In this document: positions 42,968 through 47,705 of the stretch, one piece after another
Layout: each line of letters starts with the position of its first letter
Numbering within the stretch: position 1 is the stretch's first letter
Assembly: GCA_016390365.1 (NCBI GenBank)
Contig: GCA_016390365.1_3043.1
DNA length: 64,000 bases
Direction: 5' to 3' (one strand)
From: a phage
Made by a program: the position numbers and the translations under genes
Notes under the pieces: model-generated
The model's input: only the letters and a program-made list of their open reading frames with translations
The model's database searches: none
What the model was told of the DNA's origin: nothing

Positions 42968-44395
42968 GTGGTAGAAATTATTCTTTCTCATCTTATATTT
43001 GATCAAGCTTATTTTTCAAAAGTTTGGCCATATATGGATTCAGAATATTTTGAAAGTGGTCCAGCTAAAAATACATTCAAATTAATTAAATCTCATGTTA
43101 ATGAGTACCATAGCGTTCCATCTATTAATGCGTTAAATGTTGCATTAGAAAATAGTTCATTTACTGAAACAGAATATTCTGGTGTAAAAACACTTATTTC
43201 GAAACTAGCCGATTCTCCAGAAGACCATAGCTGGTTAGTAAAAGAAACAGAAAAATATGTTCAGCAAAGGGCGATGTTTAATGCTACGTCTAAAATAATT
43301 GAAATTCAAACTAATGCTGAGCTTCCTCCGGAAAAACGAAATAAGAAAATGCCAGATGTAGGTGCTATTCCTGACATCATGCGCCAAGCATTATCAATTT
43401 CATTTGATAGTTACGTTGGTCATGATTGGATGGATGACTACGAAGCACGTTGGCTATCTTATATGAATAAAGCTCGTAAGGTTCCATTTAGACTCAAAAT
43501 TCTAAATAAAATTACTAAAGGTGGAGCTGAAACTGGAACACTGAACGTTTTAATGGCTGGTGTTAACGTCGGTAAGTCATTAGGTCTGTGTTCATTGGCA
43601 GCAGATTATTTGCAGCTCGGACATAATGTTCTTTACATTTCCATGGAAATGGCAGAAGAAGTCTGTGCTAAGCGTATTGATGCTAATATGCTTGATGTTT
43701 CTCTTGATGACATTGATGACGGGCATATTTCTTACGCTGAGTATAAAGGAAAAATGGAAAAATGGCGCGAGAAATCTACTCTCGGTCGTTTAATAGTTAA
43801 ACAGTATCCTACTGGTGGAGCAGATGCTAATACATTTCGATCGCTTTTAAACGAATTAAAGCTCAAGAAGAATTTTGTTCCAACAATCATTATTGTCGAC
43901 TATCTGGGTATTTGTAAATCTTGCCGCATTAGAGTTTACTCAGAAAATAGTTACACAACTGTTAAAGCCATTGCAGAGGAATTACGTGCTCTTGCTGTTG
44001 AAACCGAAACTGTTCTTTGGACTGCAGCACAGGTTGGTAAACAAGCTTGGGATTCTTCTGATGTTAACATGAGCGATATTGCAGAATCTGCCGGTCTTCC
44101 AGCAACAGCTGATTTTATGCTTGCGGTCATTGAAACCGAGGAGTTAGCAGCTGCTGAACAACAACTTATTAAGCAAATCAAATCACGATATGGTGATAAG
44201 AATAAATGGAATAAGTTTTTGATGGGTGTTCAAAAAGGAAATCAGAAATGGGTAGAAATTGAACAAGATTCTACTCCAACTGAAGTGATTGAGGTAGCAG
44301 GTTCACAACAGATACAAGCTGAACAGAATCGCTATCAAAGAAATGAATCGACTCGAGCTCAGTTAGATGCTTTGGCAAATGAATTAAAATTTTAG
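42968..44395 (+). CDS. 41: replicative DNA helicase gp41 (DnaB-like)
   Basis: 475 aa, GTG start; Walker A GVNVGKS. Confidence 0.95.
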   Translation: MVEIILSHLIFDQAYFSKVWPYMDSEYFESGPAKNTFKLIKSHVNEYHSVPSINALNVALENSSFTETEYSGVKTLISKLADSPEDHSWLVKETEKYVQQRAMFNATSKIIEIQTNAELPPEKRNKKMPDVGAIPDIMRQALSISFDSYVGHDWMDDYEARWLSYMNKARKVPFRLKILNKITKGGAETGTLNVLMAGVNVGKSLGLCSLAADYLQLGHNVLYISMEMAEEVCAKRIDANMLDVSLDDIDDGHISYAEYKGKMEKWREKSTLGRLIVKQYPTGGADANTFRSLLNELKLKKNFVPTIIIVDYLGICKSCRIRVYSENSYTTVKAIAEELRALAVETETVLWTAAQVGKQAWDSSDVNMSDIAESAGLPATADFMLAVIETEELAAAEQQLIKQIKSRYGDKNKWNKFLMGVQKGNQKWVEIEQDSTPTEVIEVAGSQQIQAEQNRYQRNESTRAQLDALANELKF

Positions 44396-44426
44396 TTTAC
44401 AAGCTGACAAGACTATGGTATAGTAG
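44392..44426 (+). promoter_or_regulatory. early promoter with stem-loop around -10
   Basis: gtttac 44395-44400; inverted repeat acaagact/agtcttgt flanks atggtatagt. Confidence 0.55.
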
Positions 44427-44453
44427 TCTTGTTGGTTAAATGAGGAGATTGTT

Positions 44454-44636
44454 ATGGAATTGGTAAAGGTAGTTTTTATGGGGTGGTTTAAGAATGAAAG
44501 CATGTTTACTAAAGAAACCACAATGATGAAAGATGACGTTCAATGGGCTACTACTCAATATGCTGAAGTTAATAAAGCATTAGTTAAAGCTTTCATTGAT
44601 GACAAGAAAGTATGTGAAGTTGATTGCCGAGGATAA
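44454..44636 (+). CDS. dmd: Dmd, antitoxin against RnlA/LsoA
   Basis: 60 aa MELVKVVFMGWFKNESMFTKE... matches recalled T4 Dmd. Confidence 0.9.
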   Translation: MELVKVVFMGWFKNESMFTKETTMMKDDVQWATTQYAEVNKALVKAFIDDKKVCEVDCRG

Positions 44637-44637
44637 T

Positions 44638-44895
44638 ATGCATATTGTTTTATTTAAACCTACACCGTATAACATCAGGAAAAATACTCAATTCAAAGCA
44701 CTTATTGCAGATACGTGGGAATTGGTGTTAGATATTCCACCAGAAGAAAGTCCTCCATCTGGTCGAGTGGAATTTATTAAGTTTGCTGTACGTCCTACGA
44801 AGCGACAGATTCGCCAATGCAAAAGATACTTTCGTAAAATCGTCAAGCTAGAGAAACAGTTTGTAACATGTGATTACGCAGAAGTTTTAAAATAA
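44638..44895 (+). CDS. 61.4-like small protein (possibly TifA-like anti-ToxIN factor)
   Basis: start ATG 44638 after SD gagga; synteny dmd-61.4-sp; TifA identity from memory only. Confidence 0.5.
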   Translation: MHIVLFKPTPYNIRKNTQFKALIADTWELVLDIPPEESPPSGRVEFIKFAVRPTKRQIRQCKRYFRKIVKLEKQFVTCDYAEVLK

Positions 44896-44955
44896 CTATT
44901 TACTTTTGTTGGAAATTGAGATATTATATAAACATAAACTACCGAGGAGATTATC

Positions 44956-45249
44956 ATGAAAAAATTTATCTTTGCTGCAATTTTTGCTTTAGCTTCTTGC
45001 GCTGCTCAACCTGCCATGGCAGGCTATGATAAAGATTTGTGCGAATGGTCTATGACTGCGGATCAGACTGAGGTTGAAACTCAAATTGAAGCAGATATTA
45101 TGAATATCGTTGAGCGCGATCGCCCCGAAATGAAAGCTGAAGTGCAAAAACAGCTTAAGTCTGGTGGTGTAATGCAGTATAATTATGTTCTGTATTGCGA
45201 TAAAAACTTTAATAATAAAAATATCGTAACCGAAATCACAGGCGAATAA
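44956..45249 (+). CDS. sp: Spackle periplasmic protein Sp
   Basis: 97 aa MKKFIFAAIFALASCAAQPAMAGYDKDLCEW matches recalled T4 Sp. Confidence 0.9.
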   Translation: MKKFIFAAIFALASCAAQPAMAGYDKDLCEWSMTADQTEVETQIEADIMNIVERDRPEMKAEVQKQLKSGGVMQYNYVLYCDKNFNNKNIVTEITGE

Positions 45250-45250
45250 T

Positions 45251-45883
45251 ATGATTTATTATATGCACAAAAATCCACCGTTTAAATACGGTAAATTTCC
45301 TGATGCACAATGTTATAATATAACGCCTGATGAAAATAACCGTGGATATCTTATTGGCACAATTTTTGTAATTGTTAAAGATAACGAAATCGTTGCCTGG
45401 GCAGATTTTAAAGGTACAACATATGATGTTAATCCGGTGCCTTTCACATATTACAATTTAATGGATTTGGCATACGATTATAATTGGTTTAATCATGATA
45501 CTTTGGCTCATATTGAAGGTGTAGGATTTGATATTTCATATTCGGAATACACTTTAAGCCCTATGAGTCGAGCCCATAAAGAACCTGAATATTTTTCATT
45601 TAGGAAACGTGTAAACTTTAAACGCAGCACAGAGTATGTCGGTGGAATTTTTGTTAAAGATAATCGAATTATTCGTATTAATTATCCTTTGAGCGTTAGT
45701 CAAAAAGATATTGATGTTGATTTAGATTTCACTGAAAATAATATTAATAATATTGCTTCTGTGTATTTTGGTATCGATCACAAAATTGTAATATGTGGAT
45801 ATGAATTACCGTTTGAAGAACAGCCTAAAGTAAAAGTTTCTATTGACGATCAAATTTTTAATGCTTTTATGAATAAAGGTTAA
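45251..45883 (+). CDS. 61.2-like protein with internal repeats
   Basis: 210 aa; repeated VKDN-containing motifs; C-terminus IDDQIFNAFMNKG. Confidence 0.6.
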   Translation: MIYYMHKNPPFKYGKFPDAQCYNITPDENNRGYLIGTIFVIVKDNEIVAWADFKGTTYDVNPVPFTYYNLMDLAYDYNWFNHDTLAHIEGVGFDISYSEYTLSPMSRAHKEPEYFSFRKRVNFKRSTEYVGGIFVKDNRIIRINYPLSVSQKDIDVDLDFTENNINNIASVYFGIDHKIVICGYELPFEEQPKVKVSIDDQIFNAFMNKG

Positions 45884-45887
45884 TATG
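45839..45887 (+). repeat. direct repeat copy 1 (gene 3' end)
   Basis: 49 nt, about 4 mismatches to 46197..46245. Confidence 0.7.
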
Positions 45888-46241
45888 TATAGTTCTGAAT
45901 TTTCATATTTAAAAATGGAAAAAATTTCATACGATTTTATAGATGAAAAGGTTTATTACAGTTTCCATGAACCGCGTTTTAATAGTGAGGTTGGGTTTAT
46001 TGTAGTAAAAGACAATTTCATTTTAAAGATATATTCGGCATTAAAGGATTTTCACTACGAAAATATTAACCTAAAATTTGATAAAGAAAACGTTCGTAAT
46101 TGTGCAGTAACAATTACAGGAAATAAAGGTGCATGTGTTATGCTATCTGATGAAATTAATGATTTGCTAAATGATGCAGAAAATATTACTGCGCCATCTA
46201 TTGATGACCAAATTTTTAATGCTTTTATGAATAGAGGTTAA
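45885..46241 (+). CDS. hypothetical protein sharing C-terminal module with 61.2-like gene
   Basis: 118 aa ending IDDQIFNAFMNRG. Confidence 0.5.
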   Translation: MYSSEFSYLKMEKISYDFIDEKVYYSFHEPRFNSEVGFIVVKDNFILKIYSALKDFHYENINLKFDKENVRNCAVTITGNKGACVMLSDEINDLLNDAENITAPSIDDQIFNAFMNRG

Positions 46242-46245
46242 TATG
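46197..46245 (+). repeat. direct repeat copy 2 (gene 3' end)
   Basis: matches 45839..45887. Confidence 0.7.
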
Positions 46246-46407
46246 AAAACATATAAAGAATTTATCAAAGAAGATATGGTTGCTGGAGATTCAGGTGGTA
46301 ATCCTGAAAATATCTCTACTGGAACAGCGTCAGGCGCTGTAGTAAATAAAGGCCCTGAACAGATTTCTAAAAAGAAAAAAGAGGAATCTAAAGAAAAAGA
46401 AGAGTAA
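46243..46407 (+). CDS. hypothetical small protein with capsid-targeting-like N-terminus
   Basis: 54 aa MKTYKEFIKEDMVAGDSGG...; N-terminus resembles internal-protein CTS; Lys/Glu-rich tail; not in track. Confidence 0.4.
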   Translation: MKTYKEFIKEDMVAGDSGGNPENISTGTASGAVVNKGPEQISKKKKEESKEKEE

Positions 46408-46409
46408 AA

Positions 46410-47438
46410 ATGTCATCAATACCTTGGATTGATAATGAGTTTGCGTATCGTGCATTAGCTCATTTACCTAAATTCACACAAGTAAATAATAGTTCAACTT
46501 TTAAATTACGGTTTAGATGCCCAGTGTGTGGAGATTCAAAAACCGACCAGAATAAAGCCCGTGGATGGTATTATGGTGATAATAATGAAGGAAATATTCA
46601 TTGTTATAACTGTAACTATCATGCACCAATCGGAATATATTTAAAGGAGTTTGAACCCGATTTATATCGTGAGTATATCTTTGAAATAAGAAAAGAAAAA
46701 GGTAAAAGTCGTCCAGTAGAAAAACCTAAAGAACTTCCTAAACAACCTGAGAAGAAAATAATTAAATCTCTTCCGTCATGTGTTAGATTAGATAAACTGG
46801 CGGAAGACCATCCAATTATAAAATATGTAAAAGCTCGTTGTATTCCAAAGGATAAATGGAAATATCTTTGGTTTACAACTGAATGGCCTAAATTAGTTAA
46901 TAGTATAGCTCCAGGAACATATAAAAAGGAAACACCTGAGCCTCGTCTTGTTATTCCAATTTATAATGCTAACGGAAAAGCTGAGTCTTTTCAAGGACGT
47001 GCATTAAAGAAAGATGCTCCTCAAAAATATATCACCATCAAAGCTTATCCTGAGGCAACAAAAATCTATGGAGTCGAACGAGTCAAAGATGGTGATGTAT
47101 ATGTTCTAGAAGGACCTATAGATTCGCTTTTTATTGAAAATGGTATAGCTATTACAGGTGGTCAATTAGACCTAGAAGTTGTTCCATTTAAAGATAGACG
47201 TGTGTGGGTTTTAGATAATGAACCTCGTCATCCTGACACTATTAAGCGAATGACTAAATTAGTTGATGCAGGAGAAAGGGTTATGTTTTGGGATAAATCT
47301 CCCTGGAAATCAAAAGATGTTAATGATATGATTAGAAAGGAAGGTGCAACCACTGAACAAATTATGGAATATATGAAAAATAATATTGCTCAGGGGTTGA
47401 TGGCTAAAATGCGGTTATCTAAATATGCTAAGATTTAA
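46410..47438 (+). CDS. 61: DNA primase gp61
   Basis: 342 aa; zinc ribbon CPVCGDSK...CYNC; Toprim region. Confidence 0.95.
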   Translation: MSSIPWIDNEFAYRALAHLPKFTQVNNSSTFKLRFRCPVCGDSKTDQNKARGWYYGDNNEGNIHCYNCNYHAPIGIYLKEFEPDLYREYIFEIRKEKGKSRPVEKPKELPKQPEKKIIKSLPSCVRLDKLAEDHPIIKYVKARCIPKDKWKYLWFTTEWPKLVNSIAPGTYKKETPEPRLVIPIYNANGKAESFQGRALKKDAPQKYITIKAYPEATKIYGVERVKDGDVYVLEGPIDSLFIENGIAITGGQLDLEVVPFKDRRVWVLDNEPRHPDTIKRMTKLVDAGERVMFWDKSPWKSKDVNDMIRKEGATTEQIMEYMKNNIAQGLMAKMRLSKYAKI

Positions 47439-47647
47439 ATTAACCCAACTAAAGCGAATGCTAAATCTACGAATGTATCAAGAGTAACTACTGGAATATT
47501 AATACCATGTGCAATTGCAACAGGTGATAAAATAAAGTTCCAGAGTAAAATTCCTACCATAGCAGAAATAGTAAAAGCTATACGCTTTTTATTACCTTTA
47601 TGGCATTAACAAGTGCCATTAATTTTTGTACCATGTGTCCTCCTTAT

Positions 47648-47671
47648 TGCTTTATATATTTATTGTATAAT
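47648..47671 (+). promoter_or_regulatory. MotA-box middle promoter for gene 56
   Basis: TGCTTTA 47648-47654, 11-nt gap, TATAAT 47666-47671. Confidence 0.5.
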
Positions 47672-47705
47672 TAATCTACTAACCCATGAATTGAAAGGAA
47701 AAATA

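Follow-up and report, generated by a model that had tools for sequence, protein, structure and literature searches.

What keeps the ends of two adjacent phage genes nearly identical, when hardly any of the remaining DNA can be aligned, is the question raised by a locus in a 64,000-nt stretch of phage DNA (NCBI GenBank assembly GCA_016390365.1, contig GCA_016390365.1_3043.1), which in its full length is referred to as the window. The window derives from a Tequatrovirus, a T4-like phage, and its closest database match is phage JK1 (98.6% identity over 1.6 kb). The first gene of the pair, adfA (T4 gene 61.2; 45251..45883, + strand), encodes the 210-aa anti-DarT factor A, and the second is an open reading frame (ORF) of 118 aa, here named X (45885..46241, + strand), which belongs to the RB32ORF033c family (phrog_4122). 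Both end in a 49-nt block, present as a first copy, r1, and a second copy, r2. The block exactly delimits a presence/absence polymorphism of X in Tequatrovirus and does so again in the JS98/Gaprivervirus-like clade. We consider it likely that this block is a common 3' module of two adjacent genes of the AdfA family, that its copies stay alike through selection together with gene conversion, and that exchange between r1 and r2 excises and re-inserts X.

The repeated block at the gene ends

The direct repeat joins positions 45839-45887 (r1) to 46197-46245 (r2), both on the + strand, with a start-to-start distance of 358 nt and 46 of 49 nt identical (94%). The sequence-only reading had described such a repeat with about four differences; a repeat search and alignment bear out the repeat itself and reduce the differences to three: two are synonymous (GAC/GAT at 45847/46205, GAT/GAC at 45850/46208), and the third, AAA/AGA at 45876/46234, exchanges Lys for Arg. 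Equally well founded was its statement that both copies lie at 3' gene ends and share the last residues, stop codon, spacer and next start codon. The r1 copy consists of the final 14 codons of adfA, TAA, a single T and the ATG of X, and r2 of the final 14 codons of X, TAA, a single T and the ATG of gene 61.1 (46243..46407, + strand, 54 aa), the right neighbour of the pair, which in T4 lies directly after adfA. Coding sequence makes up 42 of the 49 nt (86%), the TAA-to-ATG spacer being 1 nt. The 14-aa C-terminal tail thus encoded, SIDDQIFNAFMN[K/R]G (SIDDQIFNAFMNKG at the end of AdfA, SIDDQIFNAFMNRG at the end of X), is followed by a stop/start junction with a ribosome-binding site, in which the Lys codon AAA of r1 gives a weak Shine-Dalgarno sequence, AAGG, and the Arg codon AGA of r2 gives GAGG.

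Immediately on either side of the block identity drops to background, and at the DNA level only 49 of the 358 nt align. The exact runs between r1 and r2 measure 8, 2, 25 and 11 nt in the window, and 37 and 11 nt in phage RB32. No other 49-nt pair with three or fewer mismatches exists in the 64-kb window, and none occurred in 30 Markov-1 random sequences. Among 50,697 phage records the block was found at 910 places in 710 records. A scan for sigma-70 promoter-like sites on the + strand was negative within 45839-45887 and 46197-46245, no terminator-like site was detected in 44400-47500, neither block folds into an unusually stable RNA (z-scores of +1.60 and -1.55), and the Rfam scan of 44400-47500 returned no match at E <= 1. 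These scans give no sign of a structured RNA or a terminator in the block.

Presence and absence of adfA and X among relatives

Far from being invariant among relatives, the locus occurs in four haplotypes, the counts of which come from junction-specific searches of the same phage records and are approximate. Both genes are found in the window, JK1, Lutter and RB32, and the adfA|X junction in about 158 records. X alone characterizes T2, where the order is sp, X, block, 61.1, and about 141 records contain the corresponding sp|X junction. The gene sp, left neighbour of the variable pair, encodes the spackle periplasmic protein (97-aa ORF at 44956..45249, + strand, in the window); it was named after the JK1 and T4 annotations, and its orthologues match Pfam T4_Spackle. 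In the literature T2 is treated as a phage without an adfA homologue (PMC11257639), which matches its X-only locus. AdfA alone is the T4 arrangement (adfA, one block, 61.1), with about 170 records, a figure obtained as 326 minus the joined both-gene types, the synthetic junction query merging two pieces in adfA + X genomes. In BP32, which has neither gene, sp is joined directly to 61.1.

The most informative comparison of states with and without X involves one adfA allele in two forms. In all 4 of 4 contigs with the AdfA allele P0012, which ends in NKG, the next gene is X, and in all 3 of 3 contigs with P0013, the same protein except for its NRG end, it is 61.1. Between the two groups the adfA DNA differs at only 1-3 of 633 nt and the flanks at 2-4%, and for one pair (L018 and L023) the sole difference in adfA is the Lys/Arg base inside the block. 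Throughout the Tequatrovirus loci examined, with vB_Eco_CP as the exception, the copy before X is of the AAAGG type and the copy before 61.1 of the AGAGG type, whichever gene precedes it. Such a pattern is expected from an exchange between r1 and r2 to the left of the Lys/Arg base, or alternatively from selection acting on the Shine-Dalgarno sequence of 61.1. The 169-nt junction that results when r1 and r2 of the window are recombined in silico is present as one uninterrupted piece, with 98.2% identity, in phage FJ1, whose adfA is otherwise a T4-type mosaic and not the allele of the window. Independently, and among other flanking genes, the JS98/Gaprivervirus-like clade shows both states: the 146-aa gene is followed either by X and then the next gene (X-plus) or by the next gene directly (X-minus).

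Direct repeats of about 50 bp in a phage with very active homologous recombination make it likely that exchange between r1 and r2 excises X. According to the account of Singer et al. 1982 as cited in PMC2839356, small patches of homology (<50 bp) suffice for T4 recombination. Such an exchange, either intramolecular or unequal between concatemers or co-infecting genomes, would cut out X cleanly and in frame and leave the T4-type adfA-61.1 junction, and the reverse exchange would put X back. In this manner populations could assort anti-defence cassettes without disturbing downstream translation. As for the suggestion of the sequence-only reading that the repeats could mediate deletion or amplification of the intervening gene, deletion fits the relatives (single-block T4, the same allele with and without X), and amplification is represented only by a 59-nt duplication in vB_Eco_CP.

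That duplication (L011 2434-2556), a tandem one of the end of X, lies between X and 61.1 and consists of TGCTGCACCT plus the 49-nt block in 2.1 copies. The block is thereby present three times, each time in the AAAGG form, and a mini-ORF of 6 codons arises; whether genuine or produced during assembly, the rearrangement is confined to this one phage genome among the loci described here. Short pieces of the block are seen elsewhere too. The sp-61.1 join of BP32 (L025 1490-1515) reads GAATAATTAGAGGTTAATATG, and nearly the same 14-nt partial copy of the 3' end of the block stands between sp and X in T2 (L009 1480-1505); short repeats thus flank X in T2-type genomes also. In a T2-type metagenome contig (L043, UMED01024097.1), a 1-nt deletion in an A-run, from GGAAAAAATTT to GGAAAAATTT, frameshifts X, which is either a pseudogene there or affected by a sequencing error.

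Likeness of the two copies and probable kinship of the two proteins

If only the peptide were constrained, 6.6 of 12 codons would be expected to be identical between r1 and r2. The observed values are 10/12 in the window (P = 0.035), 12/12 in RB32 (P = 5e-4), 11/12 in VR20 (P = 6e-4) and 8/10 in SP18 (P = 0.037). Expressed as differences per 49 nt, r1 and r2 of one Tequatrovirus genome differ by 2.0 and those of one Gaprivervirus-like genome by 5.8 (1.8 in the core), and between genera the distances are 10.2 for r1 versus r1 and 6.9 for r2 versus r2. In addition, both copies share the genus-specific changes (AAT to AAG, AGA/AAA to CGA, GCT to GCC, TTT to TTC). Synonymous differences affect 3-5 of 11 codons between genera and 0-2 within most genomes, and since as many as 3-5 of 11 differ between genera, the DNA itself lacks strong cross-genus constraint. 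With moderate confidence, we hold that the simplest reading of these comparisons is selection at the level of the peptide combined with episodic gene conversion.

The proteins that share the tail are of unequal standing in the databases. The 210-aa product is AdfA over its full length (Pfam PF23813, E = 3e-139; phrog_3781), with 73% aa identity to gp61.2 of T4 and 81% to Mosigvirus alleles. X is annotated in the RB32 genome as RB32ORF033c, "similar to gp61.2", and is not present in T4. In BLASTP, X is collinear with residues 111-210 of AdfA at 37% identity (E = 7e-11), and the Pfam AdfA profile is matched at positions 113-211, its C-terminal half, with 31.8 bits over a gathering cut-off of 27 bits (E = 1.2e-7). 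Most of this BLAST and Pfam signal is supplied by the tail, and it is solely owing to the tail that X formally passes the Pfam threshold. The sequence-only reading was right that both ORFs carry VKDN motifs, which were located at residues 41-44 of X and at residues 42-45 and 135-138 of AdfA. In predicted structures (pLDDT of 81 for the AlphaFold2 model of X and a weaker 68 for the AdfA model), X and each half of AdfA are predicted to have the same order of elements: two strands, hairpin, strand, helix, strand. A Foldseek search of the predicted viral structures in BFVD led from X to AdfA (E = 6.6e-5, TM 0.51) and from AdfA to X (E = 1e-3, TM 0.45), each being the closest match of the other and no other match being significant. 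Against the PDB the X model reached a best E of 0.18, with no known fold matched. A word-indexed protein search with X gave only 5 close clusters, and a literature search for RB32ORF033c found nothing. The possibility of X being a mobile or homing element was rejected, as it contains no nuclease or recombinase domain and has just 118 aa.

X has in common with AdfA the tail of 14 aa, the hairpin with the VKDN motif, the order in which secondary-structure elements are predicted and the position of mutual best structural neighbour, whereas it is half the size, has one domain and is not detectable as AdfA without the tail. Taken as a whole, these comparisons make X a probable relative, ancient and with a single domain, of the unit repeated in AdfA; we infer that adfA and X are ancient paralogues and that X resembles one AdfA domain plus the tail. 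Orthologues of X with 43-50% identity are encoded in Gaprivervirus and relatives (SP18, VR20, DK-13, pEC-M719-6WT.2 and vB_YenM_P8), and in the Gaprivervirus-type order X follows a gene of about 146 aa that ends in the same tail and block. As the order of a tail-bearing gene and X is found in other genera, the arrangement is older than the genus split. AdfA, X and the 146-aa family share an invariant tail, even between bodies that are at most 34% identical or cannot be aligned. Scans with a degenerate tail pattern recovered 16 loci in IMG/VR and 12 in metagenomes, all of them T4-like, and did not find the tail outside T4-like phages; the exact 25-nt core pattern matched only 5 loci in IMG/VR.

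The duplication proposed by the sequence-only reading would, if recent, make the 49 nt the undiverged remnant of a 358-nt unit copied from the 3' part of gene 61.2. The spacing suits such an origin, because 358 nt correspond to X plus the 1-nt spacer and X starts at the ATG that closes the block, and so do the collinear BLASTP alignment and the match to the C-terminal half of the Pfam profile. These similarity signals, however, stem mostly from the tail, in the absence of which X has no Pfam match, retrieves no AdfA with phmmer and aligns to the C-terminal half in hhalign with P = 0.0055. Moreover, DNA similarity ends abruptly at the block edges, X is old, with its 43-50% identical orthologues in Gaprivervirus standing behind another gene, and a uniform molecular clock is incompatible with about 94% identity over 49 nt beside saturated divergence. 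We reject a recent duplication as improbable, and of the partial tandem duplication there is left at most an ancient origin of the pair; with no recent duplication, the near-identity of the 49 nt calls for another explanation. Pure purifying selection on the tail peptide and on the ribosome-binding, stop and start junction, with no role for recombination and the loss or gain of X due to unrelated events, would account for the constancy of the tail across three protein families and three genera, as well as for M719 and YenP8, where codon identity is at chance given the peptide. Furthermore, a 14-nt copy of the junction, TAGAGGTTAGTATG, precedes X in T2 without an encoded tail, which argues that the junction cassette is selected in its own right. 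Selection alone is nevertheless unlikely to be sufficient, given the 12/12 and 11/12 identical codons of RB32 and VR20 (P about 5e-4 each), the contrast between 3-5 of 11 synonymous codon differences across genera and 0-2 inside most genomes, and indel ends that coincide with the block not only in two genera but also on an adfA allele that is nearly the same with and without X.

A further explanation sees in the block a duplicated MotA-dependent middle promoter that drives downstream genes, e.g. the primase gene 61. With (a/t)(a/t)TGCTT(t/c)A, 11-13 bp and TAnnnT as the MotA consensus, AATGCTTTT agrees at 8 of 9 positions of the MotA box, and in both copies a spacer of 12 nt and TAATAT come after it (by pattern scan, 45860..45886 in r1 and 46218..46244 in r2, + strand, predictions only). 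The scan gave 12 such sites on the + strand, which bears the genes, against 3 on the - strand, and the identical 27 nt are annotated as "promoter" in phage Lutter, although that annotation is itself a prediction. In Gaprivervirus (TGCCTTC) and Mosigvirus (TGCATTT), on the other hand, the motif is broken where the peptide is kept, a start about 7 nt past TAATAT would sit inside the next ORF, beyond its ATG, the sigma-70 scan is empty in the block, and no experimental paper on a T4 middle promoter at 61.1 was found. As the cause of the repeat, a promoter is highly improbable; the motif may be a real Tequatrovirus promoter, yet this would not explain the block. In the window, sites on the + strand that resemble the MotA box (scan pattern [AT][AT]TGCTT[TC]N, 10-13 nt, TAnnnT) include 27881, 31921, 33098, 47646 and 63719, and their strong + strand bias suggests that the window contains several real middle promoters.

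The preferred reading of a selected and converted module that recombines with itself has its own difficulties, and the following observations speak against it. Codon identity between the copies is 6/10 in M719 and 7/11 in YenP8, neither of them significant; both are at the level set by the peptide, so that conversion can at most be episodic. Part of the between-genus pattern could come from codon usage that shifted across a whole genus, and the argument for concerted evolution rests on two independent genus-level lineages only. With a longest perfect run of 25 nt in the window, exchange between r1 and r2 should be rare, and excision and insertion are deduced from genome comparison and were not caught directly. 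In one X-minus Gaprivervirus-like contig (L036) the block stays of the r1 type until the final 8 nt, which is a poorer fit to a crossover inside the block. Once both haplotypes are present, ordinary recombination over long flanks can also move X between phages, so that population data alone cannot yield the rate of exchange between r1 and r2. As to the proposed kinship of the proteins, X deprived of its last 14 residues gives no Pfam match, a phmmer search with it in 1.84 billion representatives retrieves only X-family proteins (118, 119 and 125 aa) and no AdfA, and tail-less hhalign is weak (P = 0.0055 for X versus the C half of AdfA, P = 0.0012 versus the N half). The two AdfA halves compared with each other, also as tail-less profiles, reach P = 0.002, and all three matches (P range 0.001-0.006) rest on a G-x-I-x-VKDN-x-I hairpin.

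The function of AdfA gives the locus its interest, since adfA is one of a small number of T-even genes shown to act in counter-defence, in its case against the toxin-antitoxin system DarTG1. AdfA was defined in RB69, where the change R164H lets it bind DarT1; His at residue 164 results in DarT1 neutralisation and Arg in none (work of the LeRoux lab summarised in PMC11257639). The equivalent residue of the AdfA encoded in the window, 167 (45749-45751), is Asn; it is His in T4 and many alleles and Arg in Mosigvirus alleles. Judged by this residue, the allele of the window may differ in target specificity. Alleles of adfA are mosaic, as seen in the comparison of the window with FJ1 (L049), where the 5' third is 57-70% identical but the region near the 3' end 96-99%.

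Surroundings of the pair and comparison with known systems

The pair is embedded in a T4-type cluster of replication genes on the + strand, which extends from the gene 41 helicase to the gene 61 primase. Helicase 41 occupies 42968-44395 (+ strand), and the gene order places dmd and then 61.4, also on the + strand, between it and sp; gene 61, encoding DNA primase (46410..47438, + strand), forms the conserved downstream context. In T4 the dam methyltransferase gene is located between genes 61 and 56. At 47438-47700 of the window, as in JK1, dam is absent, and nothing but a short ORF on the minus strand separates the primase from the homologue of the gene-56 dCTPase. A homing endonuclease gene is annotated directly downstream of the primase in vB_YenM_P8 (L016 4286-5053) and DK-13 (L017 4443-5192), both Gaprivervirus-like; the window is without it.

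A broader hypothesis extends these results to the whole interval between sp and 61.1, which would be a recombinase-free array of anti-defence cassettes, with the tail and the coupling signal doubling as recombination site, X acting as a second anti-DarT or anti-defence factor, and the tail being a reused functional peptide, e.g. a docking motif. We advance it tentatively and find it doubtful. If it holds, T2, which is called adfA-less, would still carry an effector of the AdfA type. If the preferred reading of a recombining module is correct, adfA is part of a small array of optional genes that can be lost or regained seamlessly, and this array also contains X, an AdfA-like paralogue yet to be studied that is carried by about 300 sequenced phages, T2 among them. 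X and the invariant tail would then be targets for anti-defence screens, the failure of adfA presence to track DarTG resistance would be explained, and a predictable site of instability would be flagged for phage engineering and therapy. The literature search found no paper describing X, its indel or the shared tail.

The nearest known counterpart is the shuffling of modules by PeSL elements in T4-type phages (Arbiol et al. 2010, PMC2839356; Comeau et al. 2014, PMC4122927). In common with it are short conserved direct repeats around a non-essential ORF, relatives with a single copy and no ORF (T4, FJ1 and the contigs L018-L020 keep one block and have no X), and a proposed excision, possibly as a mini-circle, or re-insertion by the homologous recombination of the phage itself. 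In contrast to PeSLs, the block is mostly coding rather than intergenic, has no sigma-70 promoter, terminator-like hairpin or stable fold, and consists of a protein tail and a translational coupling junction in place of transcription signals. It acts like a PeSL pair, yet it is not a PeSL; if the preferred reading is correct, the PeSL idea that short junctions guide modular shuffling is extended to a coding junction.

Concerted evolution offers a second comparison: in most lineages the copies within a genome are closer to each other than orthologous copies are between genera, but here the tract spans only about 45-49 nt, the flanks cannot be aligned and the signal is missing in some lineages. 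Deletions between short repeats are familiar from the rII region of T4. As in such direct-repeat deletions, repeats of about 50 bp suffice and the product keeps one hybrid copy; the difference here is that the repeats are in-frame gene ends, that the deletion is seamless and that both states occur at comparable natural frequencies. Integron cassettes, ORFs flanked by attC, likewise combine optional ORFs, a recurring junction and all combinations of presence and absence, although at this locus there is no integrase, attC structure or dedicated promoter, and the likeness is one of analogy only. Set beside these systems, the mechanism is conventional, repeat-flanked optional ORFs being well known in T4-like phages, and the new aspect is that the recombining junction is itself a coding tail joined to a translational coupling signal.

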